The notes: generated by a model from the letters alone, not told the origin. 64,000 nucleotides of DNA from a virus (IMGVR_UViG_3300028048_000066:84164-148163); one strand, 5' to 3'. Shown: positions 11,466 to 58,577, counted from the stretch's first letter. Numbers and translations are program-made.

Positions 11466-14400
11466 ATGGGTAAAATCAAAAGTATTTTAAATGAAGATTG
11501 TGACAATGGACAAGAAGAAGTCCTAGAACAAGCATTAGAGCAAGAAGAAAAATCCAAGAAAGAAATGGAAAAGGTTATGAAGGACAGAAGTAAAGATGCT
11601 GACCAAAAAGAACCTAAAGCACCAAAGACAAACGAGATGGGATTAGTAGAGAGTTTATTAGAAGGAACTCAATATGAACTCAAGGAAGATGTTTATAGTT
11701 TGGATGTTAAAGACAGAAAAGAACTTGGTGGAATCATTTCTAAATTAAAAGAGAATAAAATCAATTTCAAGATTTCAAGAAGTGTTAAAGAAGGTTTTAG
11801 ATATACATTAAGTGTTAAGAAGTTAAATGAATCACAACAACTTAATGAAATTTATCCTGATGTTTTAATTAAATATGTTGAGAGAGCAAAGAAAGACTTC
11901 CCAGAGTTAATTAGTTCAACACAAGCAGAATTAGATGCAAGTGATTCAAAAGCAAAAGACTATGTTATTTTAGGAAATTTCTGGAATAATTTTATGGAAG
12001 ATGCTATTGATAAGTGGTCTGATAGTAGTGCATTATTTTTAGATGATAATTCAATGATGCCAATGCCTGAAAGTGTATGTAAGCAATTCCTTGTACATCT
12101 TTTTAATATTAAGAATTTAAATCTTTTATATGATTTAGATGTATATACTGCATTTGATGAATATATAGGTATGAAAGAAGATGGTGGAATATCTGATGAA
12201 GATATAATTAAATACATTGAAGAAAATAAGTGGTTTGAAAATGAAGAAGAGATAAAAGAAGACATTGATGACCAAGAAGAACCAGATTTCAACACTATGG
12301 CAATTGATGATATTTTCTACTATGTTGTAGGTAATAATGATTTTGATGTATTTGATGATGAGGGATATTTCACAGATGCAGCAATGGAACACTACAATGA
12401 AGTAGCAAATGCATATGAAGAAAACACAGGAAATGTTTTTGATGCTTTATGTGAGAGAGAAAGATGTTTTAGACCAGATGATGATATTCAAGTTGGTGTT
12501 GATGGAACGCATTATGAACCACAAATTGATTATTATGCTGATACAGATATGAATAATGATATTATAACAGCAGTTGTAAAAGAACCAGGTAAATTAGCAG
12601 AAGTTAAGGATATTAAAAACACATTAAGAGGATACCAAAAGTTAGTAGATGGTTATATTGAATCTGTACCAATGCCTGGACTGGAAGATGATATAGATAT
12701 TGTTATGAATGATGAGGGAGTTACATTAAATCTCCCTGCTAATATTGAAGTTCCTGATTATCGTACAACCCTTGTTGGTACTTTAGTTGCAGTTGGTCTC
12801 ACACCAGATTTAACTTGGAGAAGTCTTACATATGAAGAGATTGATTATGCTGTTAAATTTTTCAATGAACACGATGTATCTGAGATAAATGGAAGTAGAA
12901 AAGCAACAGCAGAGTTAAGAAATAGATTTAACCTTCCAGATTTACCAGGTTTAGAAGAATCTAAAGAACTCAAGGAAGATGATGATATGTCTGATGAAGA
13001 ATTAGCAGCAGAAGAAGAAAGAGAAAGAGCAGAGTTTGAAGCAAAAATCAAAGAGAGAAGAGATGCTATTATAAAGAAGAGAGAAGAGGCAAGAATCAGA
13101 AAAGAGAAAGCAGAACAAGCATTAGCAGAGATTGGCAATGACTGGTCTTATACAAATCTATTTGATATTTTATATGAATCTGAATCTCTTGCTGGAGAAC
13201 TTATCAGAGCAATGGATTTTGTTGAAATTAGTTATAAAGACAACGATGAAGTATTCTATTCTGGTGAAGGTTTAATTGATGATACAGCAAATGCAGCAGT
13301 ATTTATTATGAAGTATACAGACACCTCTGAAGATGATGAATATGGTGGAGAAGAGGATGACAAATTAAATATGTTATTTAAAGATATTGCTGGAGAACCA
13401 GACCACAATTTATATATAGATTTTATTGATGATGCTAAAGTACAATTAGCAAAAGTTATTGCATCACACCCTGAAATGATTGGCGATGATAATTACTATT
13501 CATTTAGCCAAGCAGAAGGTGAAGATTATATTATATACAATGAATACTATGAAGTTTATGATGCAGAAGCAGATTTACCATACGATTTACAAGTACTTAT
13601 TAACTGCGATATAATTGATTATCGTGAATTAGAAGAAATTATTGGAGAGATGTATTCTAACTATTCTGATGGAGAATCTGCTGATGTAAGTGTTTATGAT
13701 ACATATATTTCAGTTGGTAATATTGGTGAGAATGCTCTAAATGGTGTTGACCTTCAAAACGAGATTGATAACTACTCCGATATGTTCTATAGCACAATGG
13801 ATGAAGAATGTGTAGGAGCATTTGACAGGGGTGATGTTGGATATTTAGTAGATAATGGTGATATTGATAATAAATATAGTTGTGAAGTACTTGGAGAAAA
13901 GGACGGTAAAATATATATCAAAGGAAAGGTGATTGATATTGCTGCTTTAGTATATGACACAAGTGCTGATATTCAATATGGTGACATTGCATTTGATGGT
14001 GACTTTGACTATGACATTTTTGATGAAGAGGAAGAAGATGAAGAGGAAGAAGATGTAGAAGAGTCATTAAAAGAAGATGTAGAATCAGAAGAAACTGAAG
14101 AAGAAGTTGCTGTAGAAGAAACAGAAGTTGAAGATACTGATGTTAATGATGACGGTGCTATAGATACAGCAATTGACACAGAATTCATTAAATTAGAAAA
14201 TACAAAATTTAACTGCTATGAAAACCTTGAAGAATGCAAAGATAGTATGTTGTTTGATTATGGTACTAATATTGCATCACTTTCACTTGAAGCACCAAAC
14301 GGTAAAATATATTCGGTTGACTTAATGGTTGATGGCGAAGTGTATGTTGAGTATGACGATGATTATTATCGTAATGCAAGTGACTTCCCTGAGGAATTAT

Positions 14401-15650
14401 ACAATATGTTTGTAGATGGCACAGCATATGATAGTGATGATGTTTACATTGATGATAATAACTGGTTTGAAGTATTGTTTTATGTCAATGGTTATTGTTA
14501 TGATAGCGAGATGTTTGATGGTGATTCTGACCTTTCTATGTATACAAAAGATGAACTTAAAGAAGGACTATTTGATTACTTGTCTCATTTTATTGAAACA
14601 GAGATTGAAAATGAAGCGGCCAATGAAAGACTAAAAAAAGTAGAGGCAGAGAGGGAAGCAGAGAAAGAAAGAATTAGAAACACAGCACACAAATATGACC
14701 TTCCAGATATATTTGATGACCTTGATGAGTCTTCTAGTGCTTTCAAGAAGTCAGTAAAACTTGGTGGAGAAAACACACAAGACTATCTTGATGGACAAGC
14801 AATAGGAAAAGTAGCAGACCCAGATGAAAAAGCAAGACTAATTGCAGTAAAGAAACTTGAAAAATCTGGTAAGTTAGGAAATAGACCAACAGTTGCACAA
14901 GAGTTAAAGAGAAAAGTAGACCAAGTTGCACCTAACTATGAAAAGAAAGCAGGTAAGTTTGCAAAGAAAACTGGTATGACAGAAGAAACAGAATTAAATG
15001 AAATGGCAAAACTTCCTTACTATGTTCTTGCTTACAAACTTGGTGAGGTTATGTGGTCAATGAATAATGAAGAAGCATATTACGATTCAGGTTGGTTATA
15101 TTACTGGGGAGATGATATTGAAACAGTAAATGATGCAAAAGATTACTTCAATACAAAAGAAGACTATGAAGAATTAAAAGAAGTATTTGAAAGCATCTAC
15201 AGTGACAAAGAATATCACGATGATGGTTTATTCACAAATAGACAAGACATTGTAGATTATGCACACCAAATTGATAAGAAGTTAGGTCTTGAACCAATTA
15301 AGAACTATGGTGAAATCAAAAATGAAGGTGGAGATGACCCATACGCAGAGTCTTGTGAAAACTGTGAAGAAAAGAAAGAGGAAATCAAAGAAGACCTCAA
15401 AATCTTAGCAGACATCAATGATTATCAACCTTGGTCTGGTGCAGTAGATTTCTATTATGAAATTGTTGATGCAGACAAGTTATATGATTTAGAGTTCATA
15501 CTTGAAGACATTTATCCAGACGGTCTTACAATGACACAATTAAATGACTTATTATGGTTTGAAGAAGATTGGTTAAGAGATATGTTAGGTATGAAAGAAG
15601 ATAAATCAGAAGACGATACTGATGACATTGATGATAGATTTTTAGACTAA
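11466..15650 (+). CDS. 1394-aa very acidic modular protein (contains DUF3846-like domain about 12560-12870); putative internal head polyprotein
   Basis: VVKEPGK..NTL..YQKLVDGYIE..NDEG..LPAN..LVG matches DUF3846 pattern; many LNE/LKE/ESLKE linkers; late motif upstream. Confidence 0.75.
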   Translation: MGKIKSILNEDCDNGQEEVLEQALEQEEKSKKEMEKVMKDRSKDADQKEPKAPKTNEMGLVESLLEGTQYELKEDVYSLDVKDRKELGGIISKLKENKINFKISRSVKEGFRYTLSVKKLNESQQLNEIYPDVLIKYVERAKKDFPELISSTQAELDASDSKAKDYVILGNFWNNFMEDAIDKWSDSSALFLDDNSMMPMPESVCKQFLVHLFNIKNLNLLYDLDVYTAFDEYIGMKEDGGISDEDIIKYIEENKWFENEEEIKEDIDDQEEPDFNTMAIDDIFYYVVGNNDFDVFDDEGYFTDAAMEHYNEVANAYEENTGNVFDALCERERCFRPDDDIQVGVDGTHYEPQIDYYADTDMNNDIITAVVKEPGKLAEVKDIKNTLRGYQKLVDGYIESVPMPGLEDDIDIVMNDEGVTLNLPANIEVPDYRTTLVGTLVAVGLTPDLTWRSLTYEEIDYAVKFFNEHDVSEINGSRKATAELRNRFNLPDLPGLEESKELKEDDDMSDEELAAEEERERAEFEAKIKERRDAIIKKREEARIRKEKAEQALAEIGNDWSYTNLFDILYESESLAGELIRAMDFVEISYKDNDEVFYSGEGLIDDTANAAVFIMKYTDTSEDDEYGGEEDDKLNMLFKDIAGEPDHNLYIDFIDDAKVQLAKVIASHPEMIGDDNYYSFSQAEGEDYIIYNEYYEVYDAEADLPYDLQVLINCDIIDYRELEEIIGEMYSNYSDGESADVSVYDTYISVGNIGENALNGVDLQNEIDNYSDMFYSTMDEECVGAFDRGDVGYLVDNGDIDNKYSCEVLGEKDGKIYIKGKVIDIAALVYDTSADIQYGDIAFDGDFDYDIFDEEEEDEEEEDVEESLKEDVESEETEEEVAVEETEVEDTDVNDDGAIDTAIDTEFIKLENTKFNCYENLEECKDSMLFDYGTNIASLSLEAPNGKIYSVDLMVDGEVYVEYDDDYYRNASDFPEELYNMFVDGTAYDSDDVYIDDNNWFEVLFYVNGYCYDSEMFDGDSDLSMYTKDELKEGLFDYLSHFIETEIENEAANERLKKVEAEREAEKERIRNTAHKYDLPDIFDDLDESSSAFKKSVKLGGENTQDYLDGQAIGKVADPDEKARLIAVKKLEKSGKLGNRPTVAQELKRKVDQVAPNYEKKAGKFAKKTGMTEETELNEMAKLPYYVLAYKLGEVMWSMNNEEAYYDSGWLYYWGDDIETVNDAKDYFNTKEDYEELKEVFESIYSDKEYHDDGLFTNRQDIVDYAHQIDKKLGLEPIKNYGEIKNEGGDDPYAESCENCEEKKEEIKEDLKILADINDYQPWSGAVDFYYEIVDADKLYDLEFILEDIYPDGLTMTQLNDLLWFEEDWLRDMLGMKEDKSEDDTDDIDDRFLD

Positions 15651-15681
15651 TTAAAAGAAAGGAAATAAAGGAGAATATAAA

Positions 15682-16908
15682 ATGAAACTTTTAGAAGGAA
15701 AATTAACATTGAATGAAGAACAAGTTGAATTAAAACCACTTGAAGAAACTAAATATTCAATCAAATATTGGTATGATGAAGATGCAAGAGATTTGGGTGA
15801 ACCAGATGACTATGATGAAACATTTGATAATCTAGTTGATGCAAAGAAACAAGCAGATAGACTTTTTGATAAGGAAGGTTATGCAAGTGTAGAAATATAT
15901 GATGAAAATGATAAAGTTGTATATGGAAGATACCCAGAAGAGTATGAAGAATCATTAAAAGAAGCAAAGAAGAGCATTAAAGAAGCAATAAAGGTTGAAC
16001 ACCCAGATGATTATGATTTTAATGATGTTGTAAAAATATTCTATGACCAATATTATAAAACATATAAGCATTCACCAAAAGATGAAGTAAAAGAATTTAA
16101 GAAGTTTGTAGATTTCTTAATTAAGTCTGGATTACTTGACAAAGATGTAGTTAAATCTTGGGGTGAGATTAAATTAGAATCTCTTAAAGAAGCAAACGAT
16201 GATGATAAGAAAGATGACAAGAAGAAGGATGACAAAAAGTCTTCAAAGAAAGATGATAAGAAAGAAGATGAAGAAGACATTGACATTGAAGATGAAGTAG
16301 ATATTGATGTAGAAGATGACAAAGACCTTCCAGATGTAGATGTTGATGATATGCTTTCATTAGATGATTTAGATATTGATGCCGAGAATGATTTAGATAT
16401 TGACATTGATGCAAATAATGAAGAAGATGTGCCAGAAGAGATTGTAACAAATGCAAAAGCAATGAGTATTAGTGATATAGTAAGAAATGAGTTTGATTCT
16501 ATTGATGCTCTTAAAGGTGTTATTGCAACTTTAACATTAACAAACGATGATATTAACGAAGATGATGAGAAAGTCATTGATATTCTTAATGAAATTGTTG
16601 ACCTTAAACTTGAAACAGTCGGTATGCTAAACAAAGCACTTGAAATCACAGATGGAGATTTAGTTGATTCTATGTTAGATGGTGCAGATAAAGCAGAAGA
16701 AATTATTGCTGATACAGATGATGAAATTACAATAGAAGATGATATTGAAGATGTATTTGGTGCAGGACAAGATTTAGAAGTATCAGATAACTTTGATGTA
16801 GAAAGAGATAACAAAGAAAAGGGTCTATTTGATTTGGATGATATTGATGCATTACCAGATGAAGAAGAAGACAATGAGATAATCATTAAAGACAAAAAAA
16901 CTAAATAA
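15682..16908 (+). CDS. acidic low-complexity protein, putative prohead core/internal protein
   Basis: D/E-rich, KKDD repeats, LNE and ESLKE motifs; co-transcribed with 11466. Confidence 0.65.
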   Translation: MKLLEGKLTLNEEQVELKPLEETKYSIKYWYDEDARDLGEPDDYDETFDNLVDAKKQADRLFDKEGYASVEIYDENDKVVYGRYPEEYEESLKEAKKSIKEAIKVEHPDDYDFNDVVKIFYDQYYKTYKHSPKDEVKEFKKFVDFLIKSGLLDKDVVKSWGEIKLESLKEANDDDKKDDKKKDDKKSSKKDDKKEDEEDIDIEDEVDIDVEDDKDLPDVDVDDMLSLDDLDIDAENDLDIDIDANNEEDVPEEIVTNAKAMSISDIVRNEFDSIDALKGVIATLTLTNDDINEDDEKVIDILNEIVDLKLETVGMLNKALEITDGDLVDSMLDGADKAEEIIADTDDEITIEDDIEDVFGAGQDLEVSDNFDVERDNKEKGLFDLDDIDALPDEEEDNEIIIKDKKTK

Positions 16909-41376: not shown

Positions 41377-41413
41377 AAGAATCAAGATTTTTTGTAGGTC
41401 TTGGTTCTTTTTT
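41377..41413 (+). terminator. intrinsic terminator
   Basis: AAGAATCAAGAT...GTCTTGGTTCTT plus T-run. Confidence 0.7.
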
Positions 41414-41416
41414 AAT

Positions 41417-41431
41417 TGCTAAATTAAATGA
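41417..41431 (+). promoter_or_regulatory. putative late-promoter motif TGCTAAATTAAATGA
   Basis: exact copy. Confidence 0.8.
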
Positions 41432-41459: not shown

Positions 41460-44400
41460 ATGAAGATACTAAAAGATTATAATCCTAAAAATGTTAAGAA
41501 AGCATACAAAGTATTTAGAGTAAAAGATGGAAAATTATATCCACCTATGGTTGCCAATGCTAATAACGAACCTACTCCTATTGGTGTGTGGTTAGGTGCA
41601 GAAGAAGGTGCGTTTGCAGGATTATCTAAAACAGGTAGACCACAAGTTAAATCAATTGGTAGTGGTACTCTTTCATATAGACCAGGATGGCATTTAGGTG
41701 ATATTCCAAGAGCAAAACAATTTGATAGATTAAACAAAGAAACAGGGGAAGTGGAATTCCCTAAAGATTTTGTTTGGGCAGAATGTGAATATGTAGCAGA
41801 TAAAGACTACCAAAAAGACAGCGATGAACAAGGACATATGAGAATAGGCAAAGATGGTAAACCATATAGAAGTGACAAATATCAACACTCACTTGCTGGA
41901 CTTCAAAAGATTCCAGACAATGGTTATTACAAATATAGAACAAACCCTAATCCAGACACTGTACCGTGGGTTATAACAGGTGCTATTAAGGTTGACAAGT
42001 TATTAAGTGATGATGAGGTCAACTCTATTCTTAAACAAAATGGGATTGAACCTATACATAGACAAGGTGGAGATAAATCATTAAAAGAATTAGGTCTTAA
42101 TGAAAGTTTAATTAAGGAAACAAAGAGTGTTAAGTCATTAAGCACAGATGATTTATTGTCAAGATTTAGTGAGAGTGATAGTATTAAAGTTTATGATACT
42201 CCACAGTCTGGTTCTCAATATATTCTCCCTAATGGCAAGTTTTTATTCTGGGGGAAAGATTTTATTCACTCATCTTTAATGGAGTATATTTATGTATCAA
42301 TTTTAGGTGGAAAGACAGATGATAAAGGAAGGGTTAAAGACCATCAAAAACTTTACTATGTTATGGACTACTTGGAAGAAAACTTGGGTTGGATAAGAGT
42401 AAATGATAATGTTTCTGGTTATCACAGAACTTCTTATATTGCATTAGATAAAATAGCACCAACACAAGACCAATATAACTCATTGGAAATATTTTTAGAT
42501 GTATGCTATGAAAAAGGCAATGGTGGTGTTGAGATAAACAGAATGGATTTAAGAAAAAATAAAACATATTCATTTGATGACTATATTGCAGATGATATTA
42601 TAAAGAAGATAAAGCAGTCATATTCTAGTGGAGTACTATATGAAAGTTTGAAAGAAGATATAAACAATAAAGAGTTATCTAATGAGAAAAAGGAACTTAT
42701 TGTTAAAACACTCAAAGACCACTTTGGAAAGGACATAACAGAAGATTCCCAGTCTTATATATTTTTCCCAAATGGGGATATTATTAGATGTGAGTTCCAT
42801 CCAGACTTAATTGATTATTTATGTGATTGTGGTTTATTTACTGATGAAGAAGCATACATTATTGATGGTATGGGTGCAAGTTTATTTGTTAAGTGGTTTA
42901 ATTGTGTAAGAGCAACAAAGTGTGTAGGAGAAAACTATATTGAATTACCACACGACACTTTAACATCTGCTCAATATTCAAATATATTAGAACTTTTAGA
43001 TATAATGTCATTAGATGTTGATATTGATGAAGTTGAAATAAGTGCATACACAAGTGTTAGAAATGGTGAAAGTAAGTATTATAGTTTCTATGAATATACA
43101 CCAGATGAAATATTAAAGAAAATTAAGAGATATTATGCAAGTGGTGTGTTATATGAAAGTTTGAATGAAGATAAACAACTTTCAAAAGAAGAAACACTTA
43201 AACTTATGGATGATAAATTTGGTCAAAAAGAGTTATATCTTTGGTCAACATATATTCTTCCTAATGGTCATTTCCTTAACCCAGATAATGGTTGGGATGA
43301 GTTTGATGATGAACCCGAATATGAACATAGTGATTTTATATATAACTACTACAATGATTATGGTGAAACCTTGTTTGATGATTGTATTAAAATGAATGTA
43401 AATTATCCATTCTTAACTTTACCTAAACAACCAACACAACAACAATGGAATAGAGTAGAGGAAATCATTGATAATTATGATGATGGACTAGATGCAGACG
43501 GTGGTGTAGATGATTTATTTGATTGGGCAGAAGTTGACTCTGAAAAAGAAAGAGGCATTATAAGAGGGTTTCAAAGACCTTTACTAATTGACCTTGAAGG
43601 TATTGGTGCTAAAATTGTTGATGCTTCTTGGGGTGGAAGAGAAATAGTAAAAGAGATGAAGAAAGCAAAATCTAGTGGTGGTTTTTATGAAAGTTTAAAA
43701 GAAGATAAAAACCAAAAACAAACTATAATTGCCTATCACGGAACAAATAATAAGTTTGATTCATTTAGAGGTGGTAGAATTGATTGGTTCTCACAAGATT
43801 TAGATTTGGCACATCACTATGGAGATAGAATCAAGAAGTGTGAAATTACATTTAATAATCCTATTGATGTTGGTGAAGGCGATTATTATTTAGATGAAAT
43901 AGATGAAGGTGATGAATACTATGATGAGAAAACAAATACACTTGTCCCTTCTAATTTATGTGATATAGCAAATAAACTTGGTGTTGAAGTTTCAGAGTTA
44001 ATAGATATGTATTGCGGAGATGTTGAGTATTGTGATGCTTATGGTTATGATAATGTGAACTTATTACTTGGTCAACAATATATGATAACAAGTGAAATGG
44101 CATTTGGTGATTTATGCAGGTCAAAAGGATATGATTGCATCATTCAAGGTGAATGCGATATTGCTACTTATGGAATATTAAATCCAAATAACATAAAGAT
44201 ACTAGAAACACTTACAGAAGAATTAGATATAGAAATGTCTAATGTAGATAGTCTAGGAAACGAATTAAGTGCACAACAAGTAGAATATTTCAAAGATAGT
44301 AAAATAAGAGATGCTAAAGGTAACTTACTTGTAGTATATCACGGGTCAGCAACAAAAGGACTTGAGATATTTGATGCTAATAATCAAGAAGGATATAAGT

Positions 44401-47400
44401 TTGAAGGCGAGTATGTTAATTTCTTTACTGCTAGTGAAAAAGTTGCTAGAACTTATATGTATGATAAATCAAAAGATGGTGAGTTATATTCTTGTTATCT
44501 AAACATTGAACATCCTTACTATGTTAAGAATAGAGTAAAGAAGAAGAGTGAAAGAACTTGGTCTAATATCAAAGACTCTAAAACAAGGGAAATGAGGGAA
44601 ATATTGGTAGATAATTTCCTAGATAAGTGGTTTGGACAAGATGTTACAAAAAATGACATTGATAAAATAAACAAAGACTTAAAGTACTTTGGAATGTCTG
44701 TAGTACCTTCTAAAGATGAAACCAACATTGCACATAGAATGTTCAAGAGAGATGATGAGAACCTCTACAATGTACATAGAGAGAATAGAGTTATACCAGA
44801 GTTATCTTGTTTACCACTTGATAAATTATTTGGAAAGAATCCTGTTGATAACAAAGGATACTATACTGATGAAGATTGGACTATGGCATTAGAAGGGTAT
44901 ACAATGCAAGATGAAGAAGGAAATTGGGCAGGACAAACAACCAATGATGTTATAAGATGTATCCTTTATGGAAATGAATATGAGCAATTTAAGCAAGGTA
45001 AATATGATGGTATTATTATAAGAAACATTAAAGATAGTGCTAATGGTGATTCAAATATACCTAATTCTACTATTTATGTGACAATTAAATCTCCTAACCA
45101 AATAAAGAGAATAGATAATAAGAATCCTACAGATAGCAATAAGATAAATGAATCAAAAAATGACATAGAGAAGTTTAGACAATGGGCAGGGGAAGACCTT
45201 GCTAATAAGTTTTTCAAGTTAAAAGATAGATTACAAGGTAAACAAAAGGATATTTACTATTGGATGGGACAAGAGAAACAATTAGGCAAAAACAGTGCTA
45301 TAATGAATCTTTATATGACAATGAAAGAACTTGAGAGAAAACCAACAAAGAAGGGTAGAAATCAAAACGCAAGAGAGGGTTCAGAGAAGGTATATGAAGA
45401 TGCTAATTGGTTAGTTCTCAAAATTAACAATTATGAAGCAAGTAGGAAGTATGGTAAGGGAACTGCTTGGTGCATAACTGGAGACAAGAGTGATAATGGT
45501 TATGATGAAACAGAAGGAAGAAATTATTGGAATAACTATAGTGATGCTGATATTTATTTCTTTGTTGACAAGAAAAACACTCATAAGTATGCTTTAGTTG
45601 TGTATGATATAAATGATTGGATGTTGTTTGATGAGATGGACTTTGTTGATTTAGGTGATGGTGAACATTTTGAAGAAGCGGTTAGCGATGAATGTCTTGT
45701 ATATGATGATATTGTTCGTGACTATTTATATGAACACTTTAAGGACCTCCCAAAAGTTAAAGGATTACCAGACTTTGAAGCAAGATTTAAGTATTTACAA
45801 GACCATCCAGAAGAGTTTCCTGGATATGTTGAGGAATCATTAAAAGAGGAAAAAGAATCTAGTAAATTAGATATAGTTTTTGATGAGTCTTCTTATGAAC
45901 CTGTTGTAATTGGTGGTAAAGAATATTCAGATGAAGATTATGAATGTGAAACATATTATGGTATCTTATTAAATGGAGAACATATAGGAAATATTGCTTT
46001 AAATTCTAATGAAATTGAAGGATTTGAGATTTACCATAAATTTAGAAAGAAGGGATTTGGAAAGGCGGTAATTAAGGAACTACTTAAACAACATCCAGAC
46101 TTAGTATTTGTTGAGTCAATACCTGAAGCAAAAAAGTTCTGGGAAAAGGTTGGGTTTAAATCTAGTTATTATGATGATGACAGTGGTCTTTATGTTATGA
46201 AACTAGACAAATCTATAAAAGAATCTTATGAAAGCAGCAGTGTTTATTACAGGGGTTATGATAGTAGATATGGTGTGTTTGATAGTGGAGATAAATATAG
46301 TTCACTTTATACTTGGTTGACAGATGACTTTGAGTATGCAGTAGAATATGCTTCAGAAAATAAGTATGGAAAAGTAGCAAAGATAAAACTTACTTGTAGT
46401 GAAGATGATATTGGTTCTTTATATGACTTACCAGAAGAATGCGATTATTATGACCCAGGTGATGATGACTTCCAAGAATACATTTTAGATGAAGGATTAT
46501 GTGGTTATGACTTCTATGCAAACGATGATGAATCTTATTGTCTTTGTGTATCAAAAGATGTATGTAAAGTAATTGACAAAGATGTTAAGTTTGATATGAT
46601 AGATGAAGAAATGAAAGATGGAAAATTGATTGTATATAGAGTAGGTAAAACTGATGATTTTGAACAAGGTTTATTCTTTTCTGATACATTAGACTACTAT
46701 GATTATTCTGATACTGGTTATGATAAAAAAGATGCTATTCCATATGAGTTAGATTTGAAAGGTGCAAAAGTTGTTGACCCAATAATAGAGTGGGATTTAG
46801 ATGTATCAAATTGGTATGACATTAGACAAACAGAAGAAGTTTTCTTAAAACACAACTTTGAGTATTATGAAGGTTTTCCAGAAATTGATTATGATGACCC
46901 AGAAGAATATCACGAAGTTTATACAGATACTGACTATTTAGCACAATGGGCATATGAAAACGGTTATGATGTATGTATATTAAGAGATATTCCTGGTAGT
47001 AGAGAGTTTGGCGATAAATCTTCAACAGAATACTGTGTGTTTAATAAAAATATAATTAAACCATTAAAGGTAAAAGAATCCTTAGATGAAGATAAAGATA
47101 GTAAGACAATAACTGCATATCACGGTAGTCAAGATGGTAATTTAGAATTAAGTGAAGAACCTATTTACTTAACAAATGATTTAGAGTTAGCAGAACAATT
47201 TGCTATGGGTTATGCTTTCAACTTTGACTTATTAGACAGTGATGACCCTACTGTATATGAAATAGAAGTAAGTATGAGTAATCCATTATATATCAAAACA
47301 GAAGATGAATATGATACTTTAATGGATATTACAAACATAGAAGAAACAAAGAAGTATTTAGATGAAAACAATTATGATGGTATTATTTATCAAGATGAAG

Positions 47401-47573
47401 AATATGAACCAGATACAATTTACTATATGCCACTAAATGCAAAGAAACAATGTAAGATAGTAGATAAAGTAGTTGTAGATTTAATACCACAAACAGATGA
47501 TGCAGAAGTAGAAGCACAACAACTTTCTACCTATGAAGCATTTATGAATTTGAAAGGAGAAGATGATGAATAA
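41460..47573 (+). CDS. 2037-aa polyvalent protein: N-terminal YRPGWH domain, 3x ILPNG domains, 5 ADP-ribosyltransferase-like (YHG/YR) domains, WC-motif domain, GNAT acetyltransferase
   Basis: SKIRD..GNLLVVYHGS..FFT..A.TY..YDGIII.N..D..QIK = ART-PolyVal pattern; FRKKGFGK...FWEKVGF = GNAT; domains separated by ESL(K/N/D)E-type linkers. Confidence 0.8.
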   Translation: MKILKDYNPKNVKKAYKVFRVKDGKLYPPMVANANNEPTPIGVWLGAEEGAFAGLSKTGRPQVKSIGSGTLSYRPGWHLGDIPRAKQFDRLNKETGEVEFPKDFVWAECEYVADKDYQKDSDEQGHMRIGKDGKPYRSDKYQHSLAGLQKIPDNGYYKYRTNPNPDTVPWVITGAIKVDKLLSDDEVNSILKQNGIEPIHRQGGDKSLKELGLNESLIKETKSVKSLSTDDLLSRFSESDSIKVYDTPQSGSQYILPNGKFLFWGKDFIHSSLMEYIYVSILGGKTDDKGRVKDHQKLYYVMDYLEENLGWIRVNDNVSGYHRTSYIALDKIAPTQDQYNSLEIFLDVCYEKGNGGVEINRMDLRKNKTYSFDDYIADDIIKKIKQSYSSGVLYESLKEDINNKELSNEKKELIVKTLKDHFGKDITEDSQSYIFFPNGDIIRCEFHPDLIDYLCDCGLFTDEEAYIIDGMGASLFVKWFNCVRATKCVGENYIELPHDTLTSAQYSNILELLDIMSLDVDIDEVEISAYTSVRNGESKYYSFYEYTPDEILKKIKRYYASGVLYESLNEDKQLSKEETLKLMDDKFGQKELYLWSTYILPNGHFLNPDNGWDEFDDEPEYEHSDFIYNYYNDYGETLFDDCIKMNVNYPFLTLPKQPTQQQWNRVEEIIDNYDDGLDADGGVDDLFDWAEVDSEKERGIIRGFQRPLLIDLEGIGAKIVDASWGGREIVKEMKKAKSSGGFYESLKEDKNQKQTIIAYHGTNNKFDSFRGGRIDWFSQDLDLAHHYGDRIKKCEITFNNPIDVGEGDYYLDEIDEGDEYYDEKTNTLVPSNLCDIANKLGVEVSELIDMYCGDVEYCDAYGYDNVNLLLGQQYMITSEMAFGDLCRSKGYDCIIQGECDIATYGILNPNNIKILETLTEELDIEMSNVDSLGNELSAQQVEYFKDSKIRDAKGNLLVVYHGSATKGLEIFDANNQEGYKFEGEYVNFFTASEKVARTYMYDKSKDGELYSCYLNIEHPYYVKNRVKKKSERTWSNIKDSKTREMREILVDNFLDKWFGQDVTKNDIDKINKDLKYFGMSVVPSKDETNIAHRMFKRDDENLYNVHRENRVIPELSCLPLDKLFGKNPVDNKGYYTDEDWTMALEGYTMQDEEGNWAGQTTNDVIRCILYGNEYEQFKQGKYDGIIIRNIKDSANGDSNIPNSTIYVTIKSPNQIKRIDNKNPTDSNKINESKNDIEKFRQWAGEDLANKFFKLKDRLQGKQKDIYYWMGQEKQLGKNSAIMNLYMTMKELERKPTKKGRNQNAREGSEKVYEDANWLVLKINNYEASRKYGKGTAWCITGDKSDNGYDETEGRNYWNNYSDADIYFFVDKKNTHKYALVVYDINDWMLFDEMDFVDLGDGEHFEEAVSDECLVYDDIVRDYLYEHFKDLPKVKGLPDFEARFKYLQDHPEEFPGYVEESLKEEKESSKLDIVFDESSYEPVVIGGKEYSDEDYECETYYGILLNGEHIGNIALNSNEIEGFEIYHKFRKKGFGKAVIKELLKQHPDLVFVESIPEAKKFWEKVGFKSSYYDDDSGLYVMKLDKSIKESYESSSVYYRGYDSRYGVFDSGDKYSSLYTWLTDDFEYAVEYASENKYGKVAKIKLTCSEDDIGSLYDLPEECDYYDPGDDDFQEYILDEGLCGYDFYANDDESYCLCVSKDVCKVIDKDVKFDMIDEEMKDGKLIVYRVGKTDDFEQGLFFSDTLDYYDYSDTGYDKKDAIPYELDLKGAKVVDPIIEWDLDVSNWYDIRQTEEVFLKHNFEYYEGFPEIDYDDPEEYHEVYTDTDYLAQWAYENGYDVCILRDIPGSREFGDKSSTEYCVFNKNIIKPLKVKESLDEDKDSKTITAYHGSQDGNLELSEEPIYLTNDLELAEQFAMGYAFNFDLLDSDDPTVYEIEVSMSNPLYIKTEDEYDTLMDITNIEETKKYLDENNYDGIIYQDEEYEPDTIYYMPLNAKKQCKIVDKVVVDLIPQTDDAEVEAQQLSTYEAFMNLKGEDDE

Positions 47574-49557
47574 AGAGGAAATATTAAAAGATATTACTAG
47601 ACACTTTGGTATAGATAATGAACCACAAGAAGAGACTGCTATGTTTATTCTTCCAGATGGTAGATTTATGTATACTGATTTATCTCCAGAGATTGAGGAT
47701 GAAGAAGATGATGATTTTGATGATTCCTTAATATCTCAACATAATAATGTGGATGAGTATATTATTTATAAAGGATATGCTAAAGAAAGCAATAAAAAAC
47801 CTAGTGATGAAACATTATTTCAATCAATGTTTAATGCTATAAGGTTTCAAATATTTGATGAAGATGTTAGTTATTTAGCATTACCAACAAATCCACCAAC
47901 ATCTTCTCAATATGATTCAATATTAAAAGTATTAGACCTTGCAGAAAATTGGGTAGGAAGCATTGAGATTTGTGGTAGCAGTCCTTCAAGTAGAGGAATA
48001 AGATATTACTTTAATGATTGGGATGAGGATGCAGATAATATATATACAACTGATGAGGTTTTGAAAAAGATTAAAAGATACTATGCAAGTGGAATATTAT
48101 ATGAAGATTGTTTAGATGAAAAGACCATCTATCGTGGTGAGTTTAACAAATACGGTAAAGATGAATATGGTCACAACAATTATAGTGACAAACATCCAAT
48201 ATATTCTGGTATATTCTTTTATGCTGATGATGGTGATTATATGTTAGACAATCCTAATGAAATGGGAGATTATGGTTATATAAGTGCTTATGAACTAGAT
48301 GATGATGCAAAGATTTTTACTGGTTATAGAAGAAGTGAAGACTATGTTAAGGATAACAATTTAGGTGACATAAAAGATGCAACACTTACATATTTTGTTG
48401 TTGAAGCAGGTGGTTTAGATGATTCTTATTTAGGCACACCATTATCACTAAATGAACTTGTTGAAATGGAACATAATGATGAAGCAGAAATTTGGGAATC
48501 TGATGACCCAGGTTGTTGGTGGGCGATGACTCAATATCTAGCAAAAATGGATTTAGAGAAGAAAGGTTATGATGGTGCATTGTGGGATGATGAAGATTAT
48601 TCGGAAGCATCAAATCAATATCAAATATGGAATTTAGATAAGATACATAGAGTTGAAAACAAAAACGAATCACTTTCAGAATCACTTAAATTAGATGAAG
48701 CAACAAGAAATCAGTTAATAAATAAGACTAAAAACTCTGATAACTATAAAGACCAATCTAAAGGAAAGAATAGATATGAGAGAAGAACAAAGTCAAGAAT
48801 TGCTACAAGTGTTGCACAATATAACAAAGTAGATATGGATGCACTATTCAAGAGAGATATTCTTACTCTTGGTGTAGATGTTCACGGTGAAACTGATGAC
48901 TATGTTGTTACAGTAAGATTTGTAGGTTTACTTAAAGAAGTTCAAAGAGAGATTAAAGCAAACGATGGTAAACTAGAATATAAAGTAATAGCAAGAGCAA
49001 TGTCAAGAGTATTCAATAGTGGAGATGTAAGTTTACACTGCACTTGTCCAGACTTCAAGTATAGACAAAGTTACAACGCTAGTAAGCAAAACTATGGAAC
49101 ACAATATGAACCAAGACCATCTAATATTACAAACCCTAATGACACAAAGGGTGGTGGATGTAAGCATTGTATGTTAGTTTTATCTAACCTTGACTGGATG
49201 ATGAAAGTCTCTAGTGTAATAAACAATTATATTAAGTATTGTCAAGAACATATGGAATATAACTATGCAACCTACATCTTCCCAAAGGTTTATGGTATGC
49301 CTTATAAACAAGCAGTTCAGACAAGTATGTTTGATAATGGTGGTTATCTTGCATCTGACCAAAAGACAGTTGGTGATGTTGCAAAGAGAAATACTGCTGA
49401 AAAAGATGATAAAGGAAGATTCATTGTTGGCAATAAGTATAGATTCAATAAAAAGCAGAATGGTGAGTTAAATGAACCAGATGAGAACCAATTAAAGTTC
49501 AATTTTGATGAAAAACCAAAAGAAGTCATTCCAGATGAAAATGGCACAAATAAGTAG
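47563..49557 (+). CDS. 664-aa polyvalent protein: ILPDG domain, ART-like domain, C-terminal SWIM zinc-finger domain
   Basis: FILPDG..KKIKRYYASG repeat; IYRGE..GIFF..GYDG; CTCPDF...CKH SWIM motif; linkers LYEDCLDE and ESLSESLKLDE. Confidence 0.75.
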   Translation: MMNKEEILKDITRHFGIDNEPQEETAMFILPDGRFMYTDLSPEIEDEEDDDFDDSLISQHNNVDEYIIYKGYAKESNKKPSDETLFQSMFNAIRFQIFDEDVSYLALPTNPPTSSQYDSILKVLDLAENWVGSIEICGSSPSSRGIRYYFNDWDEDADNIYTTDEVLKKIKRYYASGILYEDCLDEKTIYRGEFNKYGKDEYGHNNYSDKHPIYSGIFFYADDGDYMLDNPNEMGDYGYISAYELDDDAKIFTGYRRSEDYVKDNNLGDIKDATLTYFVVEAGGLDDSYLGTPLSLNELVEMEHNDEAEIWESDDPGCWWAMTQYLAKMDLEKKGYDGALWDDEDYSEASNQYQIWNLDKIHRVENKNESLSESLKLDEATRNQLINKTKNSDNYKDQSKGKNRYERRTKSRIATSVAQYNKVDMDALFKRDILTLGVDVHGETDDYVVTVRFVGLLKEVQREIKANDGKLEYKVIARAMSRVFNSGDVSLHCTCPDFKYRQSYNASKQNYGTQYEPRPSNITNPNDTKGGGCKHCMLVLSNLDWMMKVSSVINNYIKYCQEHMEYNYATYIFPKVYGMPYKQAVQTSMFDNGGYLASDQKTVGDVAKRNTAEKDDKGRFIVGNKYRFNKKQNGELNEPDENQLKFNFDEKPKEVIPDENGTNK

Positions 49558-53164: not shown

Positions 53165-55030
53165 ATGCCAACAGCAGATAACAGAAATTTAATAGGAAAG
53201 AAGGCAGAACCGATTCCAGTTCCACAAAAAGAAATTGGTATTGATACTAATAATGTGTTCCAAAATGACATATTAGATGCTGCTGAAGTTAGTGAATTAA
53301 ATTTAAGTACACTACAAAACTTTTCCAATGTTGCACAGACAAGAGAAGAAATTTATACTTTGATTGACACAATGGCACAAGATGATACAATTTCATCTAT
53401 TCTTGAAACCTATGCAGAAGATATTGTAGAATCAAATGATAAAGGTCAAATTGTTTGGTGTGAATCTAGTGATGCAAAAGTATCTGAGTATGTATCATAT
53501 TTATTAGATGTATTAAATGTAGACAAGCACATTTATGACTGGTCTTACAATCTAGTTAAGTATGGTGATTTATATTTAAGATTATACAGAGAAAGTGATT
53601 ATGGTGATGACTTATTGTTTGGTGATGAAAAGAGCAAGAAAAAAGATACTTTGAATGAAGATATTAACTTAAAGGTATCAGAACCAAATGACCACTATGT
53701 ACATTATGTAGAAGAAGTATCTAATCCAGGTGAAATGTTTGAATTAACTAAGTTTGGTAAGACAATGGGTTATATTCAAGCACCAGCAAATGTTCAACAA
53801 CAATATGATAAGAGTTCCTCATTGGATTATATTCTTAACTACAAGATGAGAAAAGGTGATGTTAATGTTTATAGTGCAACTGATTTTGTACACTGTTGCT
53901 TACAAACAAGCAGTAACAGGTCACCTGAAGAAATCTCTATCTTTATGAATCAAGAAGATTTAGAAGCAAATAAAGTAAGTGCTACATATAAAGTAAGAAA
54001 AGGACAATCTTTACTTGCAAATAACTTTAAGATTTGGAGAGAGATGTCATTACTTGAAAATAGTATATTATTAAATAGATTAACAAGAAGTGCTATTGTC
54101 AGAATCCTCAATGTAGATACTGGTGATATGCCAAAAGAACAAGTAAACAATTTCATTTCAAGATTAAAAGAAAGAATTGAGCAAAAGAGTGCAATTAACA
54201 CAGATGTATCATTAACAGAGTACACAAACCCTGGTCCTATTGAAAACATTATTTATGTTCCAACACACGGTACACAAGGCAGCATTACTGCAAGTGTTAT
54301 TGGTGGAGATGGAGTTGATGTAAAAGGATTAAGCGATTTAGATTATTTCCAAAACAAGTTATATGGTGCATTCAGAGTTCCAAAACAATTCTTTGGCAAC
54401 ACAGATGATGGTGCAGGATTCAATGGTGGACAATCATTGGCAATCATTTCATCAAGATATGGTAAAGCAATCAAAAAAATCCAAAACACTATTTGTCAAT
54501 GTATTACTGATGTCATTAACCTTTTCTTATTAGATAAAGGACTTGATAACTATGTAAACAACTTTGTTATTAGAATGCAATCTCCAGTCACACAAGAAGA
54601 GTTAGATAGAAGAGAGAATATGAGAAATAGAGTTGGTGTAATCAACGACATTATGAGTCAAATTGATGGTGTAGTAACAGATGAAGTTCTTAAAGCAAAG
54701 ATATTGAAGTCATTGATGACAAGTGCAGTTTCTGACCCAGATGTAATTGGTTATTTACAAGACCAAATTGATATGTTGGAAGAAGGTGAAGAAGAAGGCG
54801 AAACCAAGAAAGAAGAAGGCGAAGAAGAGGAAGAACCAAAGAGACCAAAACCAATGAGTGACTTTGGTAGTACTGAACCAACATTTAATGAACCTATTGA
54901 AGAACCTGAAACTGAACCAGAGGTAGAAGAACCAACAGAAACTGAGATTGGTGGAGCAGAAGAAACAATTGAAGCACCAGAGGATTCATATTTACCAAGT
55001 CCAGATGAATTAGGGATTTCAATGGTCTAA
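53165..55030 (+). CDS. portal protein (T4 gp20-like) with acidic tail
   Basis: KYGD.Y, LLE..ILLNRL.R, VDTGDMP, D.DYFQ.KLY.A..VPK.F motifs; between terL and protease. Confidence 0.88.
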   Translation: MPTADNRNLIGKKAEPIPVPQKEIGIDTNNVFQNDILDAAEVSELNLSTLQNFSNVAQTREEIYTLIDTMAQDDTISSILETYAEDIVESNDKGQIVWCESSDAKVSEYVSYLLDVLNVDKHIYDWSYNLVKYGDLYLRLYRESDYGDDLLFGDEKSKKKDTLNEDINLKVSEPNDHYVHYVEEVSNPGEMFELTKFGKTMGYIQAPANVQQQYDKSSSLDYILNYKMRKGDVNVYSATDFVHCCLQTSSNRSPEEISIFMNQEDLEANKVSATYKVRKGQSLLANNFKIWREMSLLENSILLNRLTRSAIVRILNVDTGDMPKEQVNNFISRLKERIEQKSAINTDVSLTEYTNPGPIENIIYVPTHGTQGSITASVIGGDGVDVKGLSDLDYFQNKLYGAFRVPKQFFGNTDDGAGFNGGQSLAIISSRYGKAIKKIQNTICQCITDVINLFLLDKGLDNYVNNFVIRMQSPVTQEELDRRENMRNRVGVINDIMSQIDGVVTDEVLKAKILKSLMTSAVSDPDVIGYLQDQIDMLEEGEEEGETKKEEGEEEEEPKRPKPMSDFGSTEPTFNEPIEEPETEPEVEEPTETEIGGAEETIEAPEDSYLPSPDELGISMV

Positions 55031-55602: not shown

Positions 55603-57192
55603 ATGTTAGAAAGTTTTAAAAGCGGTAAATTCTTATATGAGAAGTTATCCAAAGAAGAGCAAGACAAAAGAGGCATTCTAGGAAGACTAGAAGGTCCAAT
55701 TGCTGATTTCAAAAACCCAACAAGAAATGGTAGACTATATTCAGAACCATTATGGGAAAAGGTATTTGAAGACCCTATAATGCAAGAGAAGATTAAGAAT
55801 AGATGTTGCTTTGGTGAGTTAGGACATCCAGAAGATAGACAAGAAGTAGATATGGAGAAAATTGCTATTTGTCTAGCAGAACAACCAAAGAAAGGTGATG
55901 ATGGAAGTCTTTATGGTATATTTGATATTCTTAACACACCTAATGGAAAGATTTTAAAGGCATTATGCGATTATGGTTGCAACATCGGTGTATCTTCAAG
56001 AGGAACAGGCGACTTATATACTGATGATGATGGTAATGAAGCAGTTGACCCAGAAACATATGAATGTGAATGTTGGGATGCAGTTTTAATTCCAGCAGTA
56101 GAAACAGCAAGAATGAATTATGTCACTGAATCTTTAAGTAACAAGAAAACATTAAAGCAAGCATTAAGAGAAAGTTTAGAAAGTGCTAGTGAAGAAGACA
56201 AGAAAGTTATGGAAACAACACTTAATGAACTTGGAATTGATGTAGAAGAAAAACAAGAAGAAATCAAAGAGGAAGTTCAAGAAGAACAACCAGAAGAGCA
56301 AATTGAAGACAACAACACATCTAATGAAGAAGCAGATGTAGTAGATGAGAAAAAGGATGCCAACGATGATGGGTCTAATAAGGTCATTGAAAGTCTAAAA
56401 GAAGCAATCAAGGAAAAGGCACAACTAGAGAAGTCTGTCAAGGAACTTCAAGAGAAGTTAGCAGTTAGTGATACCAAAGTTAATGAACTTAATGAAGAAC
56501 TTAACAAGTACAAAAATGCAACAAGTAGATTAAGTACTTATGCAAAGAGTTCTAGGGACTTAACCAAGAAAGTTTCAGAATTAGAGGGTGAGTTAAATAA
56601 AAAAGATGAACTTATTGAATCTTTAAACAAGAAATGTGATGTCTACAAAAAGAAATCAACATCTTTGAATGAGAACATTTCAAAGCAAGTAAAAGAGTTA
56701 AATTCACAATCTAAGTCCAAAGACAGTGAGATTAAAACACTCAAAGAGGAATTGGAAAAGAAGACTGCTGAATATGATGAAAATACTAAATCTTTGAATG
56801 AGTCTATTAAAGCAAAAGATAATAAGATTCTTGGATTAGAGAAGAAGATAAATGAATCTTTAACTGTAGCAAACAAGTATAAGAAGTTAGCACAAGATAC
56901 AGTAAACAGATACATTGAAAGCAAAGCAACAATGTTAGGTTTAAGTGCAAATGAAATTAAGAACAAACTTAATGAAACTTATACAATTAGTGATATTGAT
57001 AAAGTATGTGAAGATTTGAAATCATACAAACTCAATATGAGCAAATTACCTTTCAATCTTAATGATGGTAAGGTAAGAGTAAAAATTAAAGAGTCTACAA
57101 ATGACCCACTAATGAACAGAGTAAAACCAGGTATTATTGGTGATGATGATGTTGATGAGGGTTTAATTAAGATGGCAGGACTCACAGACTAA
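55603..57192 (+). CDS. prohead (head maturation) protease, T4 gp21-like, fused to coiled-coil scaffold
   Basis: NGRLYS, GELGHP, GVSSRG.G catalytic motifs; about 340-aa coiled-coil C-terminus rich in ESL/LNE. Confidence 0.9.
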   Translation: MLESFKSGKFLYEKLSKEEQDKRGILGRLEGPIADFKNPTRNGRLYSEPLWEKVFEDPIMQEKIKNRCCFGELGHPEDRQEVDMEKIAICLAEQPKKGDDGSLYGIFDILNTPNGKILKALCDYGCNIGVSSRGTGDLYTDDDGNEAVDPETYECECWDAVLIPAVETARMNYVTESLSNKKTLKQALRESLESASEEDKKVMETTLNELGIDVEEKQEEIKEEVQEEQPEEQIEDNNTSNEEADVVDEKKDANDDGSNKVIESLKEAIKEKAQLEKSVKELQEKLAVSDTKVNELNEELNKYKNATSRLSTYAKSSRDLTKKVSELEGELNKKDELIESLNKKCDVYKKKSTSLNENISKQVKELNSQSKSKDSEIKTLKEELEKKTAEYDENTKSLNESIKAKDNKILGLEKKINESLTVANKYKKLAQDTVNRYIESKATMLGLSANEIKNKLNETYTISDIDKVCEDLKSYKLNMSKLPFNLNDGKVRVKIKESTNDPLMNRVKPGIIGDDDVDEGLIKMAGLTD

Positions 57193-57239: not shown

Positions 57240-58577
57240 ATGAACTTATTAGAAACTTACGCAAAGAGATTAAAGATTTCCGAAAGTGTTTATGCAAAAG
57301 AACACGGAAACGCAACTCTTGACACACACAAGAAATTAGTAGTAGCAAAAGTTTTAGAGAACACAAGCAAGTACTTAAACGAAGCATTCTCTAACTCAGT
57401 CGGTACACAAAGAGCAGACCTTGGTACATTCAAGAAATTCTGTCTTGACTTAACAACAGTTGCTATCCCTAACTTAATCGCAAATGATTTAGTTATCGTA
57501 AAACCAATGGCATCTATCACAGGATACATCCAATATTTGAAGTTCACAGCAGGTTCAAATAAGGGTGGAGTTGCACAAGGCACAGTATTCAATGACCCAT
57601 TCAGACTTGGCAAGATGACAGATGAGAGAGTAAACTACACATCAAGTGCAGTTGCAGAAGTTCTCACAGATGGTCAAACCAAAGTTGCTTGGACACCAGT
57701 TGTTGCTGATTCAGCAAAATTCCTTGATGCAGAAGGCAATGTATTAGAAGGTGGTTCAGTTGCAGCAGATGGTACAATTTCTGATGCACCAGCAGGAGCA
57801 GTAAAAGTTGCATATGTTTATGACAATGTTTACATCCCACAAAATGACCTTCCAATCCTCAATGCAGAAATGGCAGGTATTGCTCTTGAAGCAAAAGCAA
57901 GAAGAATCTCCATTTACTATTCACAAATGGCAGCATTCCAAGCAAAGACAGAAACTGGCACAGATTTAGGTGAAGTTCTTGCAACACAGGCCTGTGCAGA
58001 GTTATCATATGAAATTGATACAGAAGTTGTTAAACTCCTTGATTCTGAAGCAGGTGTAGCAGTTACATCTACAACATTCAACAAGAGAGTACCAACTGGT
58101 GTTTCTAAAGCAGAGCATTATGAAGGTTTTGCAGAAGTTATTGAATCTGCATCACAAATCATTTATGACAGAACACAAAAACACGCAGCAAACTATATGG
58201 TTATTGCTTCTAACATCAAACCAATGCTTTCTCTTATGAGAGGTTGGAAAGCAGCATCTACAGGCAAAATCAATGGTCCTTACTTTGCAGGTACATTAAA
58301 CGGAATCAAAGTTTATGTTTCTCCAGCAATCGCACCATCAAGATTCTTCCTTGGATTCAATGGTGATGACCTTGTAACATCAGCAGCAGTTTATGCACCT
58401 TATATGGCAGTTGTTCCAACTCAATTATTAGGTTTTGCAGATGGCGGAATGAGTCAAGGTTTCTCAACAATGTATGACTTAAAGATGTTGAATGCTGACT
58501 TATTAGTAGCAGGTGCAATCGTTGATGAACCACAACCAGTTGCAGTCGTAGCAATTGACGATTCTTCAAACGCATAA
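57240..58577 (+). CDS. major capsid protein (T4 gp23-like)
   Basis: PNLIA.DL..V.PM...TG, AK.R.., E.S.EID.EV, YAPY motifs; strong codon bias; followed by terminator. Confidence 0.93.
   Translation: MNLLETYAKRLKISESVYAKEHGNATLDTHKKLVVAKVLENTSKYLNEAFSNSVGTQRADLGTFKKFCLDLTTVAIPNLIANDLVIVKPMASITGYIQYLKFTAGSNKGGVAQGTVFNDPFRLGKMTDERVNYTSSAVAEVLTDGQTKVAWTPVVADSAKFLDAEGNVLEGGSVAADGTISDAPAGAVKVAYVYDNVYIPQNDLPILNAEMAGIALEAKARRISIYYSQMAAFQAKTETGTDLGEVLATQACAELSYEIDTEVVKLLDSEAGVAVTSTTFNKRVPTGVSKAEHYEGFAEVIESASQIIYDRTQKHAANYMVIASNIKPMLSLMRGWKAASTGKINGPYFAGTLNGIKVYVSPAIAPSRFFLGFNGDDLVTSAAVYAPYMAVVPTQLLGFADGGMSQGFSTMYDLKMLNADLLVAGAIVDEPQPVAVVAIDDSSNA

Follow-up and report, generated by a model that had tools for sequence, protein, structure and literature searches.

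The subject of this analysis is a stretch of 64,000 nucleotides (nt), hereafter the window, taken from positions 84164-148163 of a virus record (IMGVR_UViG_3300028048_000066, here genome G000) that is complete at 148,163 bp and has direct terminal repeats. G000 is a metagenomic phage, and the results described below are computational. Between tail and other structural genes on one side and the genes for terminase, portal, protease and capsid protein on the other, the window carries two genes for long multi-domain proteins, P0001 (2037 amino acids, aa) and P0002 (664 aa). Both had been proposed as open reading frames, and both were confirmed to be open. We are concerned mainly with a short linker peptide that recurs between the modules of these proteins, with E-S-[LMF]-x-E at its core, and with the possibility that it is a cleavage site for the phage's own prohead protease. 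Coordinates are collected in Table 1.

Module borders were drawn from Pfam matches, internal repeats and the natural termini of homologs, giving 11 modules in P0001 and 3 in P0002. A preliminary description of the window had portrayed the two proteins as strings of unrelated domains. The modular arrangement of small domains stands, but "unrelated" was an overstatement, since four modules are paralogous copies of a single repeat (A1-A3 in P0001 and A4 in P0002), each ending in KKIKxxYxSG[VI]LYE. Residues 750-914 of P0001 form a second module resembling an ADP-ribosyltransferase (ART), next to the ART-PolyVal module proper, and several P0001 modules are without a known fold. The final module, D11, opens with an AYHG[ST] string and matched no family in a Pfam search. 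Stand-alone homologs of D11 stop at about residue 2005; the last 32 aa of P0001, ending in KGEDDE, are an extra tail that is also present in a 1037-aa relative, P0006. This tail could be a docking or targeting peptide.

Judged by their domain content, the 2037-aa and 664-aa proteins fall into the class of polyvalent proteins, which Iyer, Burroughs, Anand, de Souza and Aravind defined in 2017 and predicted to be delivered by virions (PMC5512222). The number of modules in each lies within the range of 2-15 disparate domains, P0001 contains the signature domains ART-PolyVal and GNAT, sister proteins contain a third such domain, DUF3846, and the genes have a late, virion-gene neighbourhood.

All 12 linkers of the preliminary description were recovered in place, ten in P0001 and two in P0002. 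Three of the former and one of the latter end the paralogous repeat copies, so those four are not independent of one another. The proteome of G000 holds 14 copies of ESLxE against 1.7 expected (Poisson P 3e-9); P0001 itself has five copies, a number reached in 0 of 20000 shuffles of its sequence. Chance or composition as the cause of the motif is rejected by this excess and by the shuffles. ESLxE is the commonest word of the form xxx.E in the proteome, other orderings of E, S and L occurring 1-6 times, and its 14 copies are confined to seven proteins: the protease-scaffold fusion described below and six large multi-domain late proteins (1125, 522, 1394, 408, 2037 and 664 aa, two of them with DUF3846). 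In related phages G001 and G003 there are 20 copies against 2.1 expected and 18 against 1.6, so that enrichment runs from 8-fold to 11-fold in the three genomes. A relaxed pattern, E[SG][LMFIV]x[ED], gave 45 against 22 expected; it is too loose and was not relied on.

The linkers had been said to lie at domain boundaries, and natural homolog termini bear this out. An exhaustive search with P0001 residues 1229-2037 returned 862 relatives, many of them single-domain proteins, and the natural N- and C-termini of these homologs and of the N-domain search matches were projected onto P0001. Of 155 such termini, 147 project no more than 20 aa from a listed linker, and 8 of 12 terminus clusters lie within 15 aa of one (random P about 3.5e-4). 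Eight of the ten P0001 linkers are backed by natural termini, while the remaining two separate repeat copies. BLAST alignment ends among 97 multi-domain proteins also fall near the motifs, at 3-4 times the random rate, a real but noisy signal that is not relied on here. It had further been suggested that related phages would gain or lose domains at the linkers, and the comparison of P0006 with P0001 shows just such whole cassettes bounded by linkers. P0006 has the order N-domain, ART, D7, GNAT, D11, without the block of A1-A3 plus the ART-like module and without the D9-D10 block, and its breakpoints are at linkers. At the D11 junction P0006 has QLKEN where P0001 has ESLDED, which argues that L-x-E is the conserved core.

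Is the linker simply the edge of one domain or another? The N-domain (phrog_30118, 213 aa) provides the clearest case. It retains 50-80% identity across phage lineages of 28-54% GC, in 415 viral contigs, and is found alone, at either end of polyvalent proteins, or internally. More than 100 metagenome proteins carry it at 70-80% identity. Where it is terminal or stands alone, the protein stops at ELGL (40 cases); where it is internal (58 cases), x-E-S-[LMFIV] comes next in 43, and the successive conserved positions of x-E-S-[LFM]-x-E are occupied by E in 49, S in 43, L, F or M in 44, and E in 36. Across 80 viral contigs this rule is confined to the close lineage, whose contigs reach about 160 kb; other lineages, represented by complete 30-65 kb records with giant proteins of 3000-8000 aa, have a different text after the N-domain. 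Internal copies of D7 are preceded by [LI]-x-E-[SA] in 53 of 56 cases, often as ESLNE/S (a slash marks a candidate cut throughout), and more than 100 proteins have the motif next to domains of many unrelated kinds. On these alignments, the linker is an element of the junction and not part of any one domain. Its serine codons include TCA, TCT, TCC and AGT and its leucine codons TTA, CTT, TTG and CTA, while its substitutions are conservative (L/M/F and S/G), which argues that selection acts on the peptide.

The protein encoded from 55603, earlier described as a gp21-type protease, is indeed of family S77: it matches Pfam PF03420 at 50.6 bits (cut-off 27), phrog_207 "head maturation protease" at E 2.7e-34 and the T4 gp21 structure PDB 5JBL at E 1.5e-5. 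The segments GELGHP and GVSSRG align with 5JBL, and H75, S131, S132 and D159 are invariant in four relatives; H75, S131/S132 and D159 are thus candidate catalytic residues. The protease is fused to a coiled-coil scaffold in which five ESL were counted, consistent with the description of the scaffold as rich in that word, and a candidate self-cleavage site, VTE/SL, lies at residues 174-178. The capsid site YLNE/A is likewise present where it had been placed. The candidate sites in the capsid propeptides of six related phages all have the E, and P3 is L, F or I; the variation E-[SG]-[LMF] among the polyprotein linkers is echoed by E-[SG]-[LV] at the border of the protease itself. The rule on which the preliminary description had relied is that T4 gp21 cleaves after L/I-x-E (PMC9026906); the linker contains this pattern, its core holding one or two Phi-x-E sites (Phi being a hydrophobic residue). 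The conserved Phi-x-E sites of the expected substrates provide indirect support for an S77 protease that would cut after the Glu of L/I-x-E.

A related arrangement is seen in the SWIM-zinc proteins. The C-terminal 285 aa of P0002 correspond to a stand-alone 319-aa gene in G001, which starts right after the position matching the NESLSESLKLDE linker. The family has about 600 members across hundreds of phages, mostly of 270-350 aa. Its members begin with a variable leader of 5-35 aa whose last residues are L-x-E (of 117 members, 113 keep the L and 116 the E); A/K-N/T-R-x-x-L-I-x-K-S comes next. In an AlphaFold2 model of the module (predicted local distance difference test, pLDDT, 82 overall) the L-x-E stretch is predicted to be unstructured (pLDDT below 50), and the first confident helix starts three residues past it. 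The model had no match in PDB, and its BFVD matches were only SWIM proteins of jumbo phages. Thirty-one longer members have cargo such as ART-PolyVal fused upstream of exactly the L-x-E site via Phi-x-E-x-Phi-L-x-E. As far as sequence patterns go, a head protein that is trimmed by a protease and serves as a vehicle would look like this.

Linker enrichment goes with the S77-positive genomes. The S77 protease is present in 4 of 5 linker-lineage records (3 of 3 of those at least 90% complete) as against 0 of 5 complete records from other lineages, and ESLxE is enriched in three of four S77-positive genomes (G000, G001 and G003) as against none of five S77-negative ones, which have 0-1 occurrences each. 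The best explanation that we can offer concerns late polyvalent proteins of about 14 small modules, including two ART-like modules (one a weak Pfam match), a GNAT, four repeat copies and a SWIM-zinc protein, joined by the standard junction peptide E-S-[LMF]-x-E. The polyproteins would be built into the prohead, where the S77 protease would cut after a Glu of the junction peptide; the same enzyme should also process the scaffold, the capsid propeptide and the C-terminus of the protease itself. The single-domain products would then be retained in the head and be injected into the host along with the DNA. Packaging of such proteins has precedents in T4 Alt and in a polyvalent protein of phi24B, both taken up below. 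We consider it probable, though with ample room for doubt, that the prohead protease does cut the polyproteins at the linkers.

Several points weigh against this proposal. Packaging, cleavage and injection are steps that we infer from sequence. The T4 rule does not account for the conserved E-S of the linker, so something else may read the motif, and the scissile Glu is ambiguous, with a hydrophobic P3 at both glutamates in G000 and only at the second (L-x-E) in G001. The L-x-E before D7 and before the SWIM module could belong to those folds. In P0001 and P0002 no [LIVM]-x-E ends at residues 5-14, so that both lack a targeting peptide of the T4 N-terminal kind. N-termini of this kind, which resemble the T4 capsid targeting peptide, do occur in 10 of the 19 polyvalent proteins of G000 and G001 (for example MGKIKSILNE, MIPRERSIKE and MKLEKVNLRE in sister proteins) compared with 70 among 288 other proteins (P 0.01, one-sided and post hoc). 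One S77-positive genome, G004, has no enrichment of ESLxE (2 against 1.0 expected). In G001 the linker serine is encoded by TCT in 16 of 20 linkers compared with 33% genome-wide (P 2e-5), and never by AGT, and the non-paralogous polyprotein linkers of G000 use TCN only; this bias points to linker DNA having spread by descent or recombination. Finally, S77-negative lineages have a junction motif of their own, [KR]-[FY]-S-[LIV], which occurs 6-8 times per protein against 0.4 expected in several giant proteins and is absent from other giants. Its fuller form is [DE]-x-x-[KR]-[FY]-S-[LIV]-[KRS] (e.g. DIRYSLSD, DVRFSIAN, APKFSLK), and it was found in giant polyvalent proteins of 3000-4200 aa on contigs L041, L046, L054, L087 and L091, where ES[LMF]xE occurs 0-1 times. 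Searches for S77, S78 and ClpP proteases in the five S77-negative records gave no match, which argues that junction motifs need not be prohead protease sites.

Perhaps, then, the linker is only a standard spacer or recombination junction, a neutral hinge between cassettes that are shuffled as DNA, with the proteins acting uncut whether packaged or not. The serine codon bias and the second junction motif, in lineages with no recognised head protease, both speak for this explanation, as does the fact that cassette differences between relatives fall at linkers. There are also precedents for large packaged proteins in the N4 virion RNA polymerase and in phi24B gp47, a 2811-aa polyvalent protein detected in phi24B virions by proteomics. 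Considering that a hinge needs no E, S, hydrophobic residue and E at fixed positions, however, it is difficult to see why these residues should be kept, with only conservative changes, while their codons vary. The same pattern is moreover repeated in the scaffold and at the C-end of the protease itself, and the motif tracks S77-positive genomes. We regard the spacer explanation as unlikely, though it deserves serious attention.

A different protease might instead cut the linkers, either a host glutamyl endopeptidase or an unrecognised peptidase embedded in the polyproteins, acting before packaging or after injection. The treatment of domain release by Iyer et al. predicts embedded peptidases (MPTase) (PMC5512222), the P0001 modules of no known fold leave space for one, and E-S specificity lies outside the T4 gp21 rule. 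Peptidase families were sought in P0001 and P0002, however, and none was detected, no module is common to all linker-bearing proteins, and the canonical substrates of the phage's own protease carry matching sites. The most widespread module, the N-domain, is ruled out as an embedded processing protease, since it is absent from G001 despite the 20 linkers there. Its AlphaFold2 model (pLDDT 69) gave nothing significant in a Foldseek search of PDB, only faint PARP/ART rows at E > 2. Cleavage by another protease therefore seems to us quite improbable. That the motif merely reflects domain duplication and a proteome rich in E, L, K and S, and is without function, is scarcely credible, even granting that three or four linkers are non-independent repeat ends, given the enrichment in three genomes, the rarity of other E/S/L orderings and the many unrelated domains that the motif flanks.

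If we return to cleavage by the prohead protease, how does it compare with known systems? The polyvalent proteins of Iyer et al., like those here, are very long with many disparate domains, are encoded beside virion genes, and are expected to accompany the DNA and to come apart into separate domains (PMC5512222). The agents of release proposed there are embedded peptidase domains (MPTase and C-terminal assemblin-like), of which we found none, and term searches of that text returned neither a standard junction peptide nor a trans-acting prohead protease, whereas the proteins described here share a fixed E-S-[LMF]-x-E. Literature searches likewise found no report of an E-S-[LMF]-x-E linker. The gp21/Alt/IPI-III system of T4 has in common with this phage the S77 protease, the L/I-x-E pattern and an ADP-ribosyltransferase domain, Alt being an ART that in T4 is packaged and trimmed by gp21, and its short N-terminal leaders ending in L-x-E resemble those of the SWIM and D7 families (PMC9026906). 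In T4 the protease removes short terminal propeptides from single-domain proteins, whereas in this phage as many as 11 internal junctions of one protein would be cleaved and many products retained; P0001 and P0002 also differ from the T4 head-internal proteins in lacking an N-terminus like the capsid targeting peptide (PMC9026906).

Phages phiKZ and SPN3US differ in their cleavage motif, which is described as [S/A/G]-x-E. Their diverged gp21-type proteases, phiKZ gp175 and SPN3US gp245, resemble the proposed system in cutting many packaged proteins after Glu in a short motif (PMC10052503, PMC5694885). All identified SPN3US gp245 cuts except self-cleavage give N-terminal propeptides that are largely cleared from the head, and no multi-effector polyprotein is described for these phages. 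Another parallel, drawn by Iyer et al., is with the polyproteins that RNA viruses of eukaryotes make, where a viral protease divides one translation product at standard sites into functional units. Neither the protease families nor the domains are related, and here the cutting would take place inside a DNA-phage prohead.

Downstream (3') of the polyvalent pair lie genes for a holin, the large terminase, a T4-type portal, the S77 protease-scaffold fusion and a gp23-type capsid protein. The closest cultured capsids, at about 28-34% identity, belong to Bacillus phages SP-15 and HSE3, Listeria phage LIS04 and Streptococcus phage GXN1. A tblastn search against cultured phages gave a single weak match, so no cultured relative carries the P0001/P0002 modules, and a back-translated pattern scan with full-length P0001 as query found no related viral contig. 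The operon had been said to begin at a late motif at 41417, and this was located as TGCTAAATTAAATGA, directly 3' of a terminator-like hairpin. There are about 18 copies of TGCTAAATTAAATGA in the 148-kb genome, for example before genome positions 1635, 5236, 95629, 137328 and 139766, and it is found upstream of the portal gene, the protease-scaffold gene, other polyvalent genes and further structural genes. It is probably the late promoter of the phage, and its being common to portal, protease-scaffold and polyvalent genes fits co-expression with the head genes. As a separate observation, genes for BspA-type LRR_5 proteins follow immediately on the capsid gene (window 58695-60017) and also lie among polyvalent genes (genome 7286-10117).

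Table 1. Features discussed in the text; nucleotide positions are counted from the first letter of the window unless a locus is named, and a slash marks a candidate cut.
Feature	Position (nt)	Strand	Residues	Remarks
Terminator-like hairpin	41377..41409	+		14-pair stem, then T run; closes upstream unit
Late-promoter-like 15-nt motif	41417..41431	+		5' of 2037-aa gene; motif scan of genome
P0001, 2037-aa polyvalent protein	41460..47573	+	1-2037	11 modules and C-terminal tail; open reading frame; Pfam, PHROGs, homolog termini
N-domain			1-213	phrog_30118 (PHROGs match on 13-203)
Linker 1, LNESLIKE	42096..42119	+	213-220	follows N-domain
Repeat copy A1			224-392	
Linker 2, LYESLKED	42636..42659	+	393-400	end of A1
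Repeat copy A2			401-563	
Linker 3, LYESLNED	43149..43172	+	564-571	end of A2
Repeat copy A3			572-741	
Linker 4, FYESLKED	43683..43706	+	742-749	natural terminus projects to 752
ART-like module			750-914	weak ART-PolyVal match, E 4e-4, below Pfam cut-off
Linker 5, LETLTEE	44202..44222	+	915-921	before ART-PolyVal; 7 natural termini at 906-926; P0006 breakpoint
ART-PolyVal module			922-1227	PF18760 on 951-1045, 76.4 bits (cut-off 31.2)
Linker 6, KINES	45141..45155	+	1228-1232	before D7; 48 natural N-termini project to 1210-1226
D7 module			1232-1456	
Linker 7, VEESLKEE	45828..45851	+	1457-1464	D7/GNAT; termini at 1451-1459; GNAT-only homologs start at 1465
GNAT module			1465-1584	Pfam on 1491-1568, 23.8 bits (cut-off 23.6)
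Linker 8, SIKES	46212..46226	+	1585-1589	GNAT/D9; termini at 1582-1593
D9 module			1590-1712	
Linker 9, IDEE	46596..46607	+	1713-1716	D9/D10; termini at 1699-1718
D10 module			1717-1870	
Linker 10, VKESLDED	47070..47093	+	1871-1878	D10/D11; termini at 1867-1883
D11 module			1879-2005	
C-terminal tail	47475..47570		2006-2037	
P0002, 664-aa polyvalent protein	47563..49557	+	1-664	start overlaps 2037-aa gene stop by 11 nt
Repeat copy A4			1-180	
P0002 linker LYEDCLDE	48103..48126	+	181-188	degenerate form, end of A4
Module without assigned family			189-366	
P0002 triple linker NESLSESLKLDE	48664..48699	+	368-379	directly before SWIM module
SWIM-zinc module			380-664	
SWIM-zinc family loci	48700-49554; L007:9986-10945			proteins P0273-P0392
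T4-type portal protein	53165..55030	+		Pfam Portal_T4, E 5e-43
S77 (T4 gp21-type) prohead protease fused to coiled-coil scaffold	55603..57192	+		529 aa
Protease-domain C-end site				[VM]-x-E-[SG]-[LV] in six related phages; NYVTE/SL in G000
Scaffold tail site				[IV]-x-E-[SA] in six related phages; VKIKES in G000
gp23-type major capsid protein	57240..58577	+		
Candidate capsid maturation site	57372-57386		45-49	YLNE/A
Capsid propeptide site examples				YLNE/A, FLTE/Q, YLTE/T, LFRE/S, FINE/A
Two further late multi-domain proteins	11466..16908	+		1394 aa with DUF3846, and 408 aa; ESLKE linkers

Polyvalent proteins are common in phages. From a fixed junction peptide that fits the phage's own head protease, about 13 exact cut sites can be predicted in P0001 and P0002 together, and many more in relatives. 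If the proposal is true, it would give a simple rule for splitting uncharted polyproteins into domains for annotation, and the linkers would be natural cleavable elements for loading cargo into phage heads.

The two junction motifs also raise a wider, more tentative idea, which we consider possible but rather doubtful. There may be lineage-specific "junction codes", with E-S-[LMF]-x-E read by the prohead protease and [KR]-[FY]-S-[LIV] read by another factor elsewhere, so that domains lying between junctions, or before a SWIM-type L-x-E leader, would be delivered singly. If true, hundreds of uncultured phages would share a general plug-in system for payloads carried in the capsid. In the phage described here, cleavage at the linkers would mean that one late operon could load many anti-host enzymes, ADP-ribosyltransferases and an acetyltransferase among them, into the capsid.

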